Shown: positions 3,205 through 57,111 of the stretch, in pieces
Layout of the letters: every line of letters starts with the position of its first letter
Numbering within the stretch: position 1 is the stretch's first letter
Origin: Octopus vulgaris
Lineage: Eukaryota
NCBI GenBank assembly: GCA_951406725.2
Contig: OX597834.1
Coordinates: 20,646,001-20,710,000, forward strand
Direction of reading: 5' to 3'
DNA length: 64,000 nt
Program-made: the position numbers and the translations under genes
The notes under the pieces: generated by a model
What the model saw: only the letters and a program-made list of their open reading frames with translations
Databases searched by the model: none
What the model was told of the DNA's origin: nothing

Positions 3205-3517
3205 TCATCATCATCATTTAGCATCTGCTTTCCATGTTGGCATGGGTTGGACGGTTCAACTGGGGTCTGTGAAGCCAGGAGGCTGCATCAGGCTCAGTCT
3301 GATCTGGCAATGTTTCTACGGCTGGATGCCCTTCCTAACGCCAACCACTCCGTGAGTGTAGTGGGTGCTTTTTACATGCCACCGGCACAGGTGCGAGATG
3401 GTGCTGGCAATGGCTACGATCGGATAGTGCTTTTTACATGCCACCGGCACGGGGGCCAGGCGAGGCTGGCAATGGCCACAATCGGATGGTGCTTTTTACG
3501 TGCCACCGGCACAGAGG
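3205..3517 (-). mobile_element. 5'-truncated RTE LINE 3' end (family C)
   Basis: (CAT)n tail, GGATGCCCTTCCTAACGCCAACCACTCC and GTGCTTTTTACRTGCCACCGGCAC repeats; matches the 3' UTR of the RT-bearing copy at 55415-56941. Confidence 0.85.
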
Positions 3518-3952
3518 CCCGTATTAATTAGAAACTGGGTTTTTTTAAAGTGGGGCAGGTGAGAGCTCTGTATTTTGTGCGGTTGAGAAGTTTTCTTCAA
3601 AACCACATGGTTTTGGTTTCAGTCCCATTCTGTGGCATCTTGAGCAAATGTTGTCTACTATAACCCGAAACCAACCAAAAGCAACACAAGATTTGGTAGA
3701 TGGAAACAGAAAGAAGCCCATCGTGTGTCTGTGTGTCATTGTCTCACAAATGGTGTTACTTATTTCAAGTTTTCTGTGTAAAAATGTCTGGCTGTGAAGA
3801 AATATTACCCGGTCCAGGAATTGAAACTGTGATCCTGTGATTGTGAATGCAACATCCTCACCACTGGGCCACAATGCCTTCACCATTTATATAAACATCT
3901 GGAGAACATCATTTGTAATTCTTTGCTTGCATCACTAATTCAAAGAACATGA

Positions 3953-4550: not shown

Positions 4551-5385
4551 ATAATAATAATAATAATAATAATAATAATTGTGTACAGTGCTCAGGTGCA
4601 CTACAACTCATCTAAAGTGTATATATAATCAGGTGTAGTTTCGGCGGATTTCGGAAAGCATGAGGGCCTTAAAGGATGCAGTGTCATGGCAGTCAACAAC
4701 TGACGCAGGCAGTTTATTCCATGCTTCAGCAACTCTGAGCGTGAAAAAATGTTTCCGAAAGTCATGGAAGCTGTGTTGTTTTCTGATTTTGTAGGCATGT
4801 CCACGTGTGTTAGACACATGGAGATCAAAAAGGTGTTCAGTGTTGTTGTTGGTGAGGTGGTTGATAACCTTGTGGGTGTTTACCAAGTCCGTCGCCAGAC
4901 GCCGGAGCTTCAGTGAATCCATGCCCAGGGAAACAAGGCACTCAGAATATGGTAGGTGTCTGATGGAGGGTATGCGTTTGGTTGCACGTCTCTGGACAGA
5001 TTCCAGGAGGTCAATGTTCTGAGCAAGATAGGGATTCCAAACTGATGATGCGAATTCCAAGTGTGGTCGTACCATAGCTGTATACAGTTTTAAATAGTCT
5101 TGCTGAGTGATGCCAAGACACCCTCGGCCTTCTTGACAATTTTAGAGATATGCTTTGTCCAACGCAAATCACTGCTGACAGTGATGCCTAGGTCACGCTC
5201 GCAAGAGGATTTCTTGATATCAGTGTTGTGGAGGGAGTATGTGGACGCAGGGTTTTTTCTCCCAAAATGCATGGTGGTACACTTGTCCACAGCCAGTTTC
5301 AGTTGCCAGTCTGTGATCCATTGCTGCATTGTGTCTAGGTCTGATTGTAGGAAAGAGTTGTAGACATCAGGATCAGTCCTCTTGA
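4551..5385 (-). pseudogene. CR1-clade LINE, 5'-truncated: RT C-terminal region with a frameshift near 5090, short 3' UTR and (TTA)n tail
   Basis: ORFs 5090-5422 (LQSDLDTMQQW..WQL...KC..MHFGRKN..ERDLGITV) and 4629-5075 (VRPHLEFASSVWNPY..LESVQRRATK..TRGH..FFTLRVAEAWNKLP) are typical CR1 ORF2 motifs. Confidence 0.9.
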
Positions 5386-5767
5386 TTACCCACAAGGGGC
5401 TAAACATAGAGGGGACAAACAAGGACAGACAAACGAATTAAGTCGATTACATCGATCCCTTGTGCATAACTGGTACTTAATTTATTGAACCTCGAAAGGA
5501 CGAAAGGCAAAGTCGACCCCGGCAGAATTTGAACTCAGAACGTAGCGGCAGACAAAATACGGCTACGCATTTCACCCAGCGTGTTTTTAAATGGATTGAG
5601 TCGATTATATCGACCCCAGTGCTTAACTGGTACTTATTTAATCGACCCCGAAAGGATGAAAGGCAAAGTTGACCTCAGCGAAATTTGAACTCAGAGCGTA
5701 GCGGCAGATGAAATACCGCAATGCATTTTGCCCAGCGTGCTAACGTTTCTGCCAGCCTGTTGCCTTA
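5385..5767 (-). mobile_element. two tandem copies of SINE family B (Meta-domain-like)
   Basis: Reverse complement of the GTCGACTTTGCCTTTCATCCTTTCGGGGTCGAT..AAGTACCAG core; first copy carries tail type ii (GCCCCTTGTGGGTAAT). Confidence 0.85.
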
Positions 5768-9016: not shown

Positions 9017-9222
9017 CATGTTGATTCGCTAGCCTCTGCACGCATTTTTTTTCTCTCCTTGTTTCTTTCTGTTTCTTTTCTGTGTATCTTTCTGTTGAAG
9101 AGCGTAGGCTCGAAACATAAAAGACTTGTTTTATTTATATTCCTGAGCACCATACTAATACAATTGTTTGTTTGTATTCCACCTGCCTTCGTTTTTTGTT
9201 TATTTTCATAAAGCTTCCCGTT
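9017..9222 (+). mobile_element. Penelope-LTR-like short element (family H1) with hammerhead-like motif at 9087-9124
   Basis: TCTTT-CTGTTGA-A-GAGC(GTAG)GCTC-GAAA-CAT-A-AAAGA; homologous to 30256-30468 and 23349-23505; TA runs on both sides. Confidence 0.65.
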
Positions 9223-9281
9223 ATATATATATATACATACATACATGTATGTTTACATTATATATGCATGTATGTATATAT

Positions 9282-14043: not shown

Positions 14044-14402
14044 TACGCCAGTGGCACGTAAAAAGCACCATCCAATCGTGGCCGTTGCCAGTCTCGCCTG
14101 GCCTCTGTGCTGGTGGCACGTAAAAAGCACCATCCGATCATGGCCATTGCCAGCCTCGCCTGGCCTCCGTGCCGGTGGCACGTAAAAAGCACCATCCGAT
14201 CATGGCCGTTTGCCAGCCTCGTCTGGCACGTAAACAGCACCTACTACACTCATGGAGTGGTTGGCGTTAGGAAGGGCATCCAGCCGTAGAAACATTGCAA
14301 GATCAGACTGGGCCTGGTGCAGCCTTCTGGCTTCCCAGACCCCAGTTGCACCGTCCAACCCATGCCAGCATGGAAAGCGGATGCTAAACAATGATGATGA
14401 TG
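14044..14402 (+). mobile_element. RTE 3' end (family C)
   Basis: Four GGCACGTAAA(A)..GCACC repeats, GGAGTGGTTGGCGTTAGGAAGGGCATCCAGCCGTAGAAAC, (GAT)n tail. Confidence 0.85.
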
Positions 14403-14414
14403 TTCTCAAGTTAC

Positions 14415-15263
14415 ACCAACTCGTAAGGACTAGTCTCCTGGTTTCTATAGCGTATATACTCTCCACCTGGATGGGACACTAGTCTGTCGCAGGGTTACTC
14501 ATTTTTGCCAGCAGAGTGGACTGGAGCAATATGAAATGAAGTGTTTTGCTGAAGAATGCAATGCATCACCTAGTCCAGGAATCGAAACCACAATCTCATG
14601 ATCATGAGTCCAACACCCTAACCATTAAGCCATGCACCTCCACACTCTGACCCAGGGTAACGTCAAGAATGTGACAGCCAAAGGGTGAGAGGGATGCATC
14701 AGCACTAGGTTGATACTCATTTTCAGCTGTAAAGGGCACGCGGCTGGTTTCCTGGTTTCTCTGACATATATATTCATCCCTGGACAGGACACCAATTCCT
14801 CATAGAATTACTCCTTTTTACCAGCTGAGTAGACTGGAACAACTTGAAATGATGTTTTGATCAAGAATACAATGCATCACCCAGTCCAGGAATCGAAACC
14901 AGAACCTTACAATCATGAGTCCAACACCCTAACCACTAAGCCATGCACCCCCACACTCTGACCCAGGAGAACATCAAGAATGTGACAGCCAAAGGGTGAG
15001 AGGGATGCATCAGCACTAGGTTGATACTCATTTTCAGCTGTAAAGGGCACACGGCTGGTTTCCCGGTTTCTCTGACATATATATTCATCCCTAGACAGGA
15101 CATCAATCCCTCATAGAATTACTCCTTTTTACCAGCTGAGTAGACTGGAACAACTTGAAATGATGTTTTGATCAAGAATACAATGCATCACCCAGTCCAG
15201 GAATCGAAACCACAATCTCATGATCATGAGTCCCAACACCTTAACCACTAAGCCATGCGCCTC
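14415..15263 (-). mobile_element. three tandem SINE family D copies (CORE-like body), including a 311-bp tandem duplication (~14641-14951 / 14952-15263)
   Basis: Minus-strand A-box TGGCTTARTGG and B-box GTTTCGATTCC in each copy; spacer plus SINE repeated with period 311. Confidence 0.85.
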
Positions 15264-22658: not shown

Positions 22659-23045
22659 AACTTGAGCTATCATGAAAAACCGTTTATTGAGGTAGAGAGA
22701 AAATACAAAGGATAATAGAAATTTGGGGGGCAATCATGGGATCATAGCCAAGCTGGAGCACCACCTTGAAGGGGTTTTAATCATTTAAACTTGAGCAACC
22801 ATGAAAAACCCTTTATTGAGGTAGGGAGAAAATAAAAAGGATAATAGAAAATTGGGGGGCAATCATGGGATCATAGCCAAGCTGGAGCACCACCTTGTAG
22901 GGGTTTTAATCATTTAAACTTGAGCAATCATGAAAAACCCTTTATTGAGGTAGGGAGAAAATAAAAAGGATAATAGAAAATTGGGGGGCAATCATGGGAT
23001 CATAGCCAAGCTGGAGCACCACCTTGAAGGGGTTTTAATCATTTA
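22659..23045. repeat. 129-bp tandem repeat, three copies
   Basis: AACTTGAGC starts at 22659, 22788 and 22917; units nearly identical; unit includes a SINE A tail remnant GCTGGAGCACCACCTTG. Confidence 0.95.
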
Positions 23046-24408: not shown

Positions 24409-24419
24409 TATATATATAC

Positions 24420-24679
24420 TGGTGGCACATAAAAAGCATCATCTGAACATGGCTGATGCCAGTGCCCCCAGAGTGGCTCCCATACTGGTAGGACATAAAA
24501 AGCGCCATCTGAACATGATCAATGCCAGGCCCACCTGACTGGCTCCCATGCGGGTTGGACATAAAAAGCACCATCCAAACGTGGCCAATGCCACTGGCCC
24601 CTAACTGGCTGTAAAAAGCACCCACTATACTCTAGGAGTGGTTGGCATTAGGTAGGGCATCAAGCTGTAGAAACATTGC
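24420..24679 (+). mobile_element. RTE 3'-UTR fragment (family C variant)
   Basis: Three ~69-bp ACATAAAAAGC units, then GGAGTGGTTGGCATTAGGTAGGGCATC. Confidence 0.7.
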
Positions 24680-28759: not shown

Positions 28760-29000
<241 letters not shown>

Positions 29001-29196
29001 GTTAATCCAAGCAAGAAAGCACAAAAAAAGCGCAACAACGCAAGGACGTGGAACAAATATAATATTATTGGACGCGAAGGAAAGAAAGAGGGTTTAACAT
29101 TTCGAGCGGAGCTCTTCATCGGAAACATAGGAGAAGAAAAGATCCAGAGAAGGGAAGACAGAGGGAAAAAATCGCCAACGGTGCACACGCGGTCAC
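29001..29196 (-). mobile_element. Penelope-LTR-like short element (family H2) with hammerhead-like motif at 29092-29126
   Basis: Minus strand GTTT-CCGATGA-A-GAGC(TCC)GCTC-GAAA-TGT-T-AAAC; sits between TA runs. Confidence 0.65.
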
Positions 29197-29221
29197 ATTT
29201 CTGAAATGCACCTTATATATA

Positions 29222-29590
29222 TATAAGGTGCATTTCAGAAATTTTGAAACTTTGTCAGGAAAGACATTTATTAACCTTAAAAAAAATTACATAAGTAATT
29301 TCCTTCAAAATAGAATCCTCTGACTTCAGTGCTCTTGCTACAGAGTTCTAGCCACTATGTGAAAACCCCTTCAACTTGGGGATCAACCGAATGTCACAGG
29401 GATCTAAGTCTGGACTGTAGGGAGGGTGAGGCACAGTTTTGGTGCCCATCCTTGTCAAGTGGTTGGTTATGAGGATAAAATTGTGGGCTGATGCATTGTC
29501 CTGATGCTGGTGCTCTGGGCATTTGCAATGAAATCTCTTCCAGAATTTTCTCCAAAACTCCACATAGCCTTAGTTGACCATCTGGCGAGT
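29222..29590 (-). pseudogene. mariner transposase fragment with 3' terminal inverted repeat
   Basis: HQDNASAH....VPHPPYSPDLDPCD..LIPKLK is the mariner catalytic region (DNA..H, YSPDL); TA-bounded end TATAAGGTGCATTTCA. Confidence 0.85.
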
Positions 29591-30258: not shown

Positions 30259-30468
30259 GCCATAATAGATCGTTAGCCCCTACACGCATTTTTTTCTCTC
30301 CTTGTTTCTCTCCTTGTTTTTTTCTGTGTATCTTTCCGTCGAAGAGCGTAGGCTCGAAACTTAAAAGGCTTTTTCTATTTCTATTCCTGAGCACTATACT
30401 AATACATTTGTTTGTTTGTACTCCACCTGCCTTCATCTTTTGTTTATTTTCATAAACTTTCCCTTTAC
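30256..30468 (+). mobile_element. Penelope-LTR-like short element (family H1), hammerhead-like motif at 30331-30368
   Basis: TCTTT-CCGTCGA-A-GAGC(GTAG)GCTC-GAAA-CTT-A-AAAGG; homologous to 9017-9222; (TA)n on both sides. Confidence 0.65.
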
Positions 30469-31741
30469 ATATATATATATATATATATATGGAGAGAGAG
30501 AGAGAGACAAATGTGTGCATATGAAACATTTACATTAACACTTAAACTTATGACGTATATTTGAACTTAAAATTCAGTCAATAAAATGACCTGTCAGTGT
30601 TTCAACAACACTTTAGCAAAATATAATGAAAGGATAATAGCAGTTAATTGCTTTTGTTATGCATTTAAGCAGGGCAGACAAACACAGAGGGAGAGGCCTG
30701 AACAGAGAGAAAAAGAGAGATGGAGACACTTGGCCATTCATATCAATAGATTCATGCTGATAAAATATGACATACAACCGTCTCAACGAAGCAACACATT
30801 TCCTGTTTGAAAAGTAAATATTTTTCTGAAACAAGACTAAGCAAATGAATATATAAGTAATAATAAAAAAAAAAAGGAAAACAAAAAAAAGAAATATTGG
30901 TTGAACATCGAAAGTTCTTGATGCGAAAATCAAATGGAAATGGTGAAATAAATATACAAAAGAATATTTCGTCTGTCAAATCTTCCATTTCTTTCAGGGA
31001 ATATAAAAGAAATCCAATAATTTTAATGTGAGGTTAATGGATTTTATATTTGTATTTTTGTTTGTATTTTTTCGTTTTGTTTTCTTTGATCCTATATGAT
31101 TTTGATGTTTATAATTTCATGTTAAGGTATTAATTATGCAAATATGATATTTTCCCCATTTTTTCATACCGTTGTTATCATCATTATTATCATCATTATT
31201 ATTATCATCATCCTTATTTTCATTATCGTTATAATTGTTAATGTTGTACTCATTATTATTATCATTATCATTATCGTATTTATTAACATTGTTATCATCA
31301 TTATTATTATCATCACTATCATCCTCATCGTTATTATCATTCTTGTTTTAATTGAATAAGCAGTAATGTCAGAATTAATGAGCTTCTATTTAATTTCAAT
31401 TGATCTACGAGCTGTTGAAAAGAAAATGCTCGTTATCAAAATTGCTATAATTTGAGAAAAAACAAAACAAAAACAAAACATTAAAATGTTGAAAGTAAAA
31501 AGTAATCCAAAACAAAAAAAAAATCTCTCAAACTCATTCATGAATGAATACTCACACAACAACACACACATACACATTCACATACAGATGCATACACACA
31601 TATACATACATAACAGATTGAATTAGTTGTCTGGGATATATTGATATCATATCACAGCATTTCATATCACTTTATGTGACGATGTTCTTATCGCCATCAT
31701 CATTGTTGTTATCATCCTCCTCATCATCATCATTACCATCA

Positions 31742-39633: not shown

Positions 39634-39674
<41 letters not shown>

Positions 39675-39675
39675 A

Positions 39676-39862
39676 TACCAGAGTAATCATATAAATACAA
39701 AACAGGGTGGAAAAAATAGTACTCAAATACCAGAAGTAGAGTAATGTGCTTTATTCAAAAGCAGCAAAGATATCACAAATATCACAAAACTGTCCGATGA
39801 ATAGGAACGTGAAACTCTGAGTAACAGCTTTTGTGATATTTTTGCTGCTTTTTAATAAACTG
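39676..39862. mobile_element. (TA)n-flanked Penelope-LTR-like fold-back element
   Basis: 39750-39793 is complementary to 39824-39859 around a hammerhead-like core. Confidence 0.65.
39780..39838 (+). ncRNA. type I hammerhead-ribozyme-like motif (U4C core)
   Basis: Stem I TATCACAAAACTGT/ACAGCTTTTGTGATA, core CCGATGA, stem II ATAGGAACGT, GAAA, palindromic helix III ACTC-T-GAGT, GUA triplet 39821-39823. Confidence 0.6.
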
Positions 39863-39880
39863 TATATATGTGTATGTATA

Positions 39881-39934
<54 letters not shown>

Positions 39935-39937
<3 letters not shown>

Positions 39938-40311
39938 AGTGGCTGTGTGGTAAGTAGCTTGCTAACAAATTACATGGTTCCAGGTTCAGTCCCACTGCGT
40001 GGCACCTTGGGCAAGTGTCTTCTATTATAGCCTCAGGCTGACCAAAGCCCATCATACATATATATATATATATGTATATGTGTGTGTATATACGTTTGTG
40101 TGTCTCTGTTTGTCCCCCCCCCCCCCAGCATCGCTTGACAACTGATGCTGGTGTGTTTATGTCTCCCGTAACTTAGCGGTTCGGCAAAAGAGACCGATAG
40201 AATAAGTAATAGGCTTACAAAGAATAAGTCCTGGGGTCGATTTGCTCGACTAAAGGCGGTGCTCCAGCATGGCCACAGTCAAATGACTGAAACAAGTAAA
40301 AGAGTAAAAGA

Positions 40312-40312
<1 letters not shown>
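39935..40312 (+). mobile_element. SINE family A with internal deletion, inserted in (TA)n
   Basis: A and B boxes, CORE-like segment, tail. Confidence 0.9.
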
Positions 40313-40352
<40 letters not shown>

Positions 40353-55414: not shown

Positions 55415-56941
55415 CATCATCATCATCATCATCATCGTCGTTTAACGTCCGTTCTCCATGCTAGCATGGGTTGGACGGTTCGACCGGGGTTCTGGGAAGC
55501 CAGAAGGCTGCACCAGGCTCCAGTCTAAATTTGGCAATGTTTCTACAGCTGGATGCCCTTCCTAACGCCAACCACTCCGTGAGTGTAGTGGGTGCTTTTT
55601 ACGTGCCACCTGCACAGGTGCCAGGCGGGGCTGGCAACGGCCACGGTCAGATTGGTGTATTTTATGTGCCACCGGCACGGAAGCCAGTCGAGGCGGTGCT
55701 GGCATCGGCCACGAGTCGGATAGTGCTTTTACGTACCACCAGACCAGGGATCCTGGCTGGTTCAATTCGATTTCGATTTCGCTTGCCCCAACATGTCTTC
55801 ACAAGCAAAGGGGTTGGCAAGGGTGCCTGTCGTACGGTCGCATTGGAGTATTTTACGTGCCACGGCCATAAGTCGGATAGTGCTTTTTACGTACCATCAG
55901 ACCAGGGATCCTGGCTGGTTCAATTCGATTTCGATTTCGCTTGCCCCAACATGTCTTCACAAGCAAAGGGGGTTGGCATGGGTGCCTGTCGTACGGTCGC
56001 ATTGGAGTATTTTACGTGCCACGGCCACGAGTCGGATAGTGCTTTTTACGTACCACCAGGCCAGGGATCCTGGCTGGTTCAATTCGGTTTCGATTTCGAT
56101 TTCGCTTGCCCCAACATGTCTTCGCAAGCATGGGGGTTGGCATGGGTGTCTGTCGTCGGATGAGGTTCTATATCGACTTCGCTTGCCTCAACCGGTCTTT
56201 GTGTCCAAGGGAGGAAAGGCATTCATAAGTGGGCTGGGCTCACTTGTCCTGCCTGGTCTTCTCACGTACAGAATATTTCCAAAGGTCTCGGTCTCTGGTC
56301 ATTTCCTCAGTGAGGCCTAAAGTTCGAAGGTCATGCTTCACCACCTCGTCCCAGGTTTTCCTGGGTCTACCTCTTCCACGGGTTCCCTCAACTGCTAGGG
56401 ATTGGCACTTTCTCACACACCTATCTTCATCCATTCTCGCCACATGACCATACCAGCGCAATCGTCTCTCTTGCACACCACAACTGATGCTTCTTAGGTA
56501 CAACATTTCTCTCAAGGTGCTAACGCTCTGTCGAGTATGTACACTGACATTACACATCCATCGGAGCATACTGGCTTCATTCCTCACGAGCTTACGCATG
56601 TCCTCAGCAGTCACGGCCCATGTTTCGCTGCCATGTAGCATGGCTGTTCGTACACACACATCATACAGTCTGCCTTTTACTCTGAGCGAGAGGCCTTTAG
56701 TCACCAGCAGAGGTAAGAGCTCCCTAAACTTTGCCCAGGCTATTCTTATTCTAGCAGTTACACTTTCAGCGCACCCACCCCCACTACTGACTTGGTCACC
56801 TAGATAACGGAAGCTATCAACTACTTCTAGTTTTTCCCCCTGGAAAGTGACGGAAGTTGTTTTCTGCAGATTTTCGGAGGTTAATGCTCCCGAGCATCTG
56901 CCACATACAAAAACTATCTTCCCAGTTAGCCTACCTTTGAC
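55415..56941 (-). mobile_element. RTE-clade LINE, 5'-truncated: RT C-terminal ORF 56240-56941, ~820-bp 3' UTR, (GAT)n tail
   Basis: LEVVDSFRYLG..RIRIAWAKF..MLHGSETW..RRLRWYGHVARM..GTRGRGRPRKTW; uninterrupted frame. Confidence 0.92.
55714..56157. repeat. ~158-bp tandem repeat (about 2.8 copies) inside the RTE 3' UTR
   Basis: AGTCGGATAGTGC at 55714, 55871 and 56030. Confidence 0.9.
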
Positions 56942-57111
56942 CTGCAACAAAAATTACTCCTCCGCTACCGTTCTGACCTCATCTACAGGATTCATATTTT
57001 TTTCCATCCAAATGATTCTGGAGACTGTGGAATAAATGATAATCAGATGGGGCAATGTCTTGTGAATATGGTGGGTGGGGCATCATTTCCCATTCAAACT
57101 GCTATGAGATA

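Follow-up and report, generated by a model that had tools for sequence, protein, structure and literature searches.

The window examined here, a 64-kb stretch (64,000 nucleotides) of Octopus vulgaris DNA, is AT-rich animal sequence rich in microsatellites, and it carries a single copy of a hammerhead-like motif between two (TA)n tracts. These tracts, at 39636-39677 on the left flank and 39863-39935 on the right, are each a likely target of insertion; it should be noted that TA tracts are common throughout the window.

The motif lies on the forward strand. The 5' strand of stem I (39784-39793, four proximal and six distal base pairs) pairs, as judged from paralogs and folding, with 39824-39834 around a bulged pyrimidine at 39828 that is C or T in the family. 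Stem I is followed by the core, C3-C4-G5-A6-U7-G8-A9 (CCGATGA, 39794-39800), which can be read directly from the window letters, by the stem II and loop II region, ATAGGAACGT (39801-39810), which paralogs and pairing probabilities indicate to be broken in this copy, and by GAAA (39811-39814). The stretch 39811-39823 comprises G12-A13-A14-A15.1, a palindromic helix III (4+1+4), U16.1, and A17. Helix III itself, ACTC-T-GAGT, occupies 39814-39822 as a palindrome centred on T39818, and the GUA triplet lies at 39821-39823, with the predicted cut after 39823. All hammerhead core boxes, CUGANGA, GAAA, and UH, are present in order, save that U4 is replaced by C; the window letters and the paralog variant rows together give a U4C variant core, C3-C4-G5-A6-N7-G8-A9. 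The first-pass annotation of this DNA had named the core, the GAAA box, the palindromic helix III, and the GUA triplet, and every letter is as it had claimed. Based on paralog pieces, the forward copy of the element's end spans 39784-39859, which consists of the hammerhead motif plus 36 nt past the cut site and has AATAAA as its last letters.

Other repeats surround the motif. An abundant SINE-like repeat directly adjoins the right TA tract (39936-40320) and recurs in 25 further blast pieces in the window; it may be tRNA-like and of an octopus type. Two broken frames on the reverse strand (56243-56953 and 4632-5437) resemble C-terminal parts of non-LTR reverse transcriptases, presumably RTE-like and CR1/L2-like. 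Tandem arrays with units of 311, 129, 159, and 62-66 nt are located at 14495-15258, 22659-23045, 55706-56156, 3365-3519, 14047-14227, and 24416-24610.

A pattern search was carried out for CYGANGA, GAAA, and UH boxes in that order, with at least 4 bp in stem I, at least 3 bp in helix III, and at least 2 bp in stem II. The motif is the only one in the 64 kb that meets these thresholds under the CYGANGA core. The same search gave matches in 0 of 200 dinucleotide shuffles of the window and, when the stem II requirement was dropped, in 2 of 200, a test that is optimistic since its thresholds equal the observed values. The 110-nt hairpin that encloses the motif has a z-score of -7.4. Rfam returned no hammerhead match for the window's own decayed copy, either at gathering level or at E≤10; across the window there was nothing at gathering level, what appeared at E≤10 was noise of a microRNA-like or simple-repeat kind, and weak matches to mir-3145 and mir-15 were rejected as reflecting the hairpin alone. 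Exact-pattern scans gave 0 viral contigs, 0 prokaryote genomes, and no true paralog, metagenome contigs included. Two metagenome loci (L001:366-384 and L002:418-436) were discarded as a 19-nt chance match in unrelated, near-identical contigs that lack a hammerhead.

Two additional hammerhead-like layouts were observed in the window. A second, unrelated minimal motif on the reverse strand (28997-29250, core at 29122) also has a CCGATGA (U4C) core. An extra base precedes its stem II, which is 4 bp long, helix III is nearly absent, and the motif ends in a TA tract; a 46-bp palindrome around a TA run lies at 29197-29242. It occurs in one copy only, and its C4 may thus be private. A third short repeat is found on the forward strand at 9026-9226 and 30270-30470 (cores at 9092 and 30336). 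The two copies are 88% alike over 203 bp, have a 5-bp stem I and a 4-bp stem II, and both carry U at core position 6 (A6U).

The repeat family and its consensus letters

Paralogs were taken from three DNA contig runs (X1, X2, and X12) and one raw RNA run (X22), 4 of 24 runs. The repeat is matched by 1,838, 3,814, and 4,664 contigs in the three DNA runs, and the summed peak depth is about 10^4 times the single-contig depth, which is a rough estimate and not a copy number. The window motif belongs to a very high-copy animal repeat. The variation described below refers to the 40 variant rows listed, of 68, which for X12 include 21 of the 24 places that differ at 5% or more, and the alignments favor window-like alleles.

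The paralogs revealed a stem II that the window copy has lost. Position 39802 is C in 85, 94, and 80% of depth in the three DNA runs and 39803 is G in 86, 92, and 79%, so the family stem II reads ACG-GGAA-CGT. This is the very repair that the first-pass annotation had proposed, and the consensus that it had asked paralogs to provide, CCGA(T/C)GA with ACG-GGAA-CGT, is indeed the family state. The family-majority stem II is 3 bp long with a GGAA loop and has an A10.1-U11.1 pair rather than the usual G10.1-C11.1. In the window copy, the three positions read A-U, U-G, and A-C, and the stem fails, with a pairing probability of about 0; with family letters in the family-shared part, the probability is 0.33-0.49. 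The earlier description of this motif as the best-formed one was misleading, given that stem II is lost and misfolding is predicted in the window copy.

The loss had been ascribed to CpG decay, a proposal that holds in part. CpG hypermutability is visible in the family, where two other CpGs have 3-10% transitions as compared to 2% or less at five recomputed non-CpG rows, and the window CpG observed/expected ratio is 0.45. However, the change from CG to TA needs two hits, of which only the first could be a methyl-CpG deamination.

The second unusual feature is the C at core position 4. We infer that C4 is the family state, an indirect reading and not a count: no row for 39795 is present among the 40 of 68 listed, and X12 has only one further C>T place at 5% or more. 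One insert among those listed reads GTCCGACG. According to Perreault et al. (PMC3088659), U4C "considerably decreases activity in vitro", and a viroid U4C hammerhead nevertheless keeps enough activity in vivo for infectivity to be retained (Ambros and Flores 1998, as cited there). The core change is the same in both cases, but in the viroid it belongs to one variant, whereas here it is apparently fixed in a huge animal family. The octopus family also differs in this letter from the 56 motifs in Fig. S3 of PMC4209133, all of which have U4. The descriptor used in that study cannot find the family because it demands cuganga and gaaannuh.

Within 39784-39834, and leaving aside the window's own two changes, variants above 10% in a DNA run fall among the rows listed at only three places. 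The first is N7 (39798), which is C in 87, 23, and 89% of depth in the three DNA runs and gives the family core CCGA(T/C)GA. The second is the central base of helix III, with A at 7-22% and C at 11-15% of DNA depth, and the third is the stem I bulge at 39828, with T at 33-68%. These are the positions that a dimeric hammerhead leaves free, a coincidence with a chance of about 0.003-0.006 by a simple draw made post hoc. The pattern suggests that the flanks of helix III are conserved in the family. No compensatory double changes were seen among the variant rows listed. Upstream of the motif, the family sequence is heterogeneous, with agreement of about 0.5 and a consensus that decays fast, and many paralog pieces begin at 39784, 39785, or 39788 with different upstream letters.

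The long hairpin and its inverted copy

The first-pass annotation had described a very long stem I of 14 bp with one bulge, extendable by about 20 bp. When 39780-39839 is folded alone, a 14-bp stem with bulged C39828 does form, but the long stem is not a ribozyme helix. The additional pairing is likewise present in the letters, with arms 39750-39779 and 39830-39859 that are alike at 28 of 30 positions, but adding it requires that a 9-nt duplication be looped out. This direct duplication, in which 39771-39779 equals 39780-39788 (39771-39788, forward strand), had escaped the earlier annotation. As a consequence, the same 3' strand is contested by the 14-bp stem and the 30-nt arms.

The origin of the long arm is revealed by the paralogs. 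Loose ends behind 39859 run on as the reverse complement leftward of 39749-39750 in 61, 85, and 112 contigs of the three DNA runs (counts among the 24 of 505 rows listed), and behind 39779, 73 RNA reads continue into the reverse complement of the hammerhead. These continuations show that at 39676-39789 the 3' part of the element is present a second time, 5'-truncated and inverted, on the reverse strand. This copy begins about 6 nt past the cut site, reaches as far as the element's 3' end, which adjoins the TA tract (the left end is approximate), and supplies the long stem. Its reverse complement repeats 39829-39859 and then continues with the family's downstream sequence, which gives the native unit a length of 110 nt from cut site to 3' end. 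The long arm is thus an inverted 3'-end copy and not a part of the ribozyme, and most paralog pieces begin at 39784-39788.

The two copies overlap by 6 nt at 39784-39789, which is the reverse complement of 39829-39834, corresponds to the distal half of the native stem I, and is the probable inversion joint. The window lacks a partner for the bulged pyrimidine 39828, which would be expected from a longer inverted copy. An inverted copy that starts exactly at the cut site was therefore rejected, since the native 5' strand is present there and the bulge has no partner; the joint lies about 6 nt further on. On these sequences, the native stem I would measure about 6-10 bp, and one upstream type could form a further 5 bp beyond a bulge. 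The share of the proximal stem I depth that can reach 39780 is no more than about 2.5, 4.8, and 6.7% in the three DNA runs. The low depth at 39774-39780 was at one point considered a direct measure of the rarity of the joint, but pieces may go to the better-matching right arm and these values are an upper bound.

The head-to-head inversion recurs in the family. Of the 15 joints listed (of 68), 7 connect the left arm with the hammerhead's 5' side at breakpoints that differ from the one in the window, while the other 8 are opposite-strand joints of the kind that a colinear unit would give. Among filled joints, 11 of the 12 listed (of 14) link the left arm to the hammerhead 5' side, again at other breakpoints. 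A joint within stem I is not a general rule, since the other family joints lie elsewhere. The joint region of the window is crossed by 2 of the 24 records listed (of 10,669), which come from independent runs. One of the two is free of gaps: X1 record 7 covers 39711-39816 and has the same 9-nt duplication. An ungapped record across the joint in an independent run speaks against an assembly chimera. In addition, the polymorphic mirror sites 39767 and 39842 carry the same allele in both arms, which is consistent with one template.

Predicted folding and RNA reads

Folding was modeled with nearest-neighbour parameters that contain neither Mg2+ nor tertiary contacts, and the values below are comparable only among themselves. 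In the 51-nt unit, stem I (4 bp, bulge, 6 bp) closes the motif with a probability of 0.71-0.98. In the 110-nt span, by comparison, the predicted fold uses the upstream arm, which displaces stem I, and is not a hammerhead. The hammerhead-constrained ensemble of the 110 nt lies 9.6 kcal/mol above the free ensemble with native letters and 5.4 kcal/mol above it once the family stem II is put in. In the part shared by the family, the corresponding differences are 7.7 kcal/mol (native) and 2.6-3.3 kcal/mol (family letters). The model thus predicts that the window copy is likely dead and would not fold as a hammerhead.

Helix III, which includes A15.1-U16.1, has 3 bp as a monomer hairpin (+2.1 kcal/mol), and as a self-duplex it has 8 bp (-7.9 kcal/mol). 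When two units are folded together, they are joined by helix III and stem I, but stem II does not form; instead, the core CCG pairs with the 5' strand of stem II. These predictions suggest that the family hammerhead would need a dimer or a protein, and the model does not reach the full active fold even with two units.

RNA run X22, of which about 6% was sampled and which has an organism label other than that of X1 and X12, contains 975 matching reads in both directions about equally. No pile-up of read starts or ends was seen in this one standard RNA-seq sample, which is a weak test. Core changes are frequent in these reads (C3 to T, 33%; A9 to G, 30%; G12 to A, 20%) as compared to less than 2% in DNA. 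These changes are compatible with host transcripts that run through a few decayed copies, and the reads neither show nor exclude cleavage. At 39704, 39711, 39800, 39826, 39831, and 39838, A>G or T>C changes reach 12-55% in X22 and about 3% or less in DNA. Over all places in X22, A>G occurs at 19 and its reverse, G>A, at 12, while T>C occurs at 15 and C>T at 6. The excess could come from A-to-I editing of double-stranded inverted copies or from alleles of a few expressed loci, and changes of a non-editing type are likewise enriched in the X22 reads.

Probable relation to Penelope-like elements and alternative readings

Taken together, we consider it likely on balance that the locus holds a dead copy of a type I hammerhead within a high-copy repeat, that this repeat is likely the pseudo-LTR (pLTR) end of a Penelope-like element (PLE), and that the hairpin is its inverted tail. 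The parts of this reading are not equally firm. That the sequence is a PLE-type end with a stem made by inversion is highly probable, and the hammerhead of the family was quite probably functional in the source elements.

The hammerheads described from metazoan PLE pseudo-LTRs include variants whose helix III is small and palindromic, which are weakly active and act as dimers, and pairs on opposite strands are also reported (Cervera and de la Pena 2014, PMC4209133). The motifs described there, for example from Hydra, Aedes, Drosophila, and Saccoglossus, resemble the octopus family in their type I topology. Helix I is short in its proximal part, the flanks are AU-rich, a dimer is predicted to be necessary because helix III is palindromic, and most copies are solitary, truncated members of large families. 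A Poseidon-linked motif of Hydra (Fig. S3 of PMC4209133) has the same 4+1+4 helix III and GUA, its GAAA column having been placed by inference. Unlike these motifs, the octopus family has a 3-bp stem II that starts with A-U and no extra base after A9.

The geometry of the insertion also resembles that of PLEs. Craig et al. (2021, PMC8557442) describe EN+ PLEs that have an inverted, 5'-truncated pLTR next to them and insert into (TA)n DNA, and head-to-head joints with a 15-bp overlap or palindromes have been described, for which self-priming was proposed (Arkhipova et al. 2013, PMC3846280). An inverted 5'-truncated copy adjoins the 5' end, head-to-head, at the window locus, and the arrangement recurs among the listed joints of the family. 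The hammerhead lies near the 3' end, with its cut site 110 nt before it. TA tracts, which are common throughout the window, form both flanks, and some paralogs enter TA behind 39851. The octopus locus shares with the inverted pLTRs of both papers the head-to-head arrangement, a joint marked by an overlap or palindrome, and variable truncation, and a target in simple AT-rich or (TA)n DNA may be a further similarity. It differs in that the overlap lies inside stem I of the hammerhead.

Another comparison is PAc (Poseidon of Anolis carolinensis), in which the cut site lies 26 nt into the ORF and internal RT starts lie at 111-118 nt (Frangieh et al. 2024, PMC11167929). Both strands are primed in that system, and the ribozyme is protein-assisted and dispensable for insertion in vitro. 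Like the octopus family, PAc has a hammerhead about 100 nt before the insertion 3' end and lacks RNA-seq ends at its cut site, and its AT-rich targets may be a further similarity. The work on PAc included its ORF and tests in vitro, whereas the octopus family is known from sequence alone and has a different helix III and core.

No PLE-like ORF was recognized by eye among window frames of at least 110 aa, and no RT or GIY-YIG ORF is linked to the repeat. Neither a target-site duplication nor a tandem pLTR was seen at the locus or in contigs that break at the repeat, none of which covers the stretch in full. The family is a candidate member of the PLEs: it would function as the hammerheads of PLE pseudo-LTRs do, and its insertion geometry is that of PLEs. 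Four family sequence motifs are absent from the supplement of PMC8557442 (exact text, entries up to 400 characters), a weak indication that the family is not among the consensus sequences listed there, and neither hammerheads nor ribozymes come up in the main text of a paper on Octopus vulgaris repeats (PMC13282606). Searches of the accessible literature for an octopus or cephalopod hammerhead family and for C4 cores gave no description of the present family (the repeat may well be catalogued in Repbase or Dfam), and no paper combining Penelope, hammerhead, and self-priming came to light.

Our current hypothesis is as follows. Three parts of the family unit are shown by the paralogs: stem I measures 6-10 bp and has a bulged pyrimidine, stem II is 3 bp long under a GGAA cap, and helix III is a 4+1+4 palindrome. 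C at core position 4 would be the family state. A single unit is predicted to barely form helix III, and two units would pair through the palindrome, giving 8 bp around a central mismatch. Cleavage after GUA would then have been slow in the source elements and would have taken place in dimers or with the assistance of the element's protein, in the manner of known PLE hammerheads. The RT of the element may have put 3' ends into the (TA)n tract, and the head-to-head inversion would have been made during insertion. At this locus, the inversion could have arisen by switching or fold-back on the 6-nt complementarity of the distal stem I, plus a 9-nt slip. The window copy would then have lost both letters of the stem II CpG, a loss that is observed, and is predicted to have no ribozyme fold.

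A different account keeps the PLE-type element and the inversion but regards the hammerhead as vestigial: U4C and a weak stem II would have silenced the source, which multiplied without cleavage. We judge this account rather unlikely, while noting that several observations agree with it. U4C lowers activity in vitro (PMC3088659), the anole PLE inserts in vitro without cleavage and has no reads ending at the cut site (PMC11167929), Naiads reach high copy number without canonical hammerheads (PMC8557442), X22 has no pile-up of RNA ends, and C4 lets the core pair with the 5' strand of stem II in the two-unit fold. Against it, subfamily-level variation among the rows listed falls at the three free positions and not at the core or stems, and the U4C viroid ribozyme is sufficiently active in vivo (Ambros and Flores 1998, cited in PMC3088659). 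C4 is also found in another, unrelated motif of the window, although that motif occurs in one copy only.

It is improbable, in our estimation, that the family is instead a short non-autonomous element or non-LTR retrozyme, composed of the hammerhead and about 110 nt and copied by a PLE enzyme. Many pieces begin within a few letters of stem I while the upstream consensus decays fast, as such an element would predict, and animal retrozymes have been proposed as non-autonomous PLE derivatives (bioRxiv 10.64898/2026.07.22.740005). Heavy 5' truncation, however, is normal in PLEs (PMC8969392). Retrozymes are built of 200-400-nt units repeated in tandem, and their type I motifs are canonical (Cervera and de la Pena 2020, PMC7229834). 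The octopus family shares with the non-LTR retrozymes the type I hammerhead in animal repeats and the dimer logic, but the locus has no tandem array of hammerhead units, the window contains the motif just once, and contacts of the canonical loop 1/loop 2 type are not evident.

That the window copy is itself a working ribozyme, stabilized by an unusually long stem I, is very improbable. Its core, helix III, and triplet are intact and its 60-nt part forms a 14-bp stem I, but stem II is broken by an A-C mismatch (pairing probability about 0), the upstream arm displaces stem I in the 110 nt, where the hammerhead lies 9.6 kcal/mol above the ensemble, and the copy differs from the X12 majority at 14 places in 187 among the rows listed. 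Equally remote, and already largely refuted, is the notion that the hammerhead likeness is accidental and that a MITE-like terminal inverted repeat, an assembly chimera, or a fold due to chance accounts for the hairpin: the hairpin is AT-rich and has no Rfam hammerhead match, but the motif was matched in 0 of 200 shuffles, the missing stem is restored in paralogs, the joint of the hairpin is spanned by 2 of the 24 records listed (of 10,669) from independent runs, one of them ungapped, and, in place of fixed terminal inverted repeats with a target duplication, it has unequal arms within a longer colinear unit and joints that vary between copies.

Returning to the dead PLE-type hammerhead copy that we favor, the window locus itself is a fossil and the interest lies in the family. 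What is new here is limited to a U4C core that appears to be family-wide, with a minimal stem II, and to an inversion joint inside stem I. A near-invariant core letter is apparently fixed as C in a very large animal repeat family, and counts of PLE hammerheads are probably too low because the published descriptor and Rfam miss the C4 family. The joint inside stem I suggests a concrete source of the overlaps and palindromes at inverted pLTR joints (PMC3846280). A bolder version, which we hold to be unlikely, is that a dimer-only U4C hammerhead is actively selected in a PLE family of about 10^4 copies, beside other odd-core families, with stem I serving as the fold-back primer of the inverted-pLTR joints. 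If that were true, odd-core families such as those of the C4 and A6U motifs of this same window would be invisible to Rfam and standard descriptors, and deliberately throttled cores would be a common design in PLEs. The C4 family offers a natural test of whether PLE hammerheads must cut at all (PMC8557442, PMC11167929).
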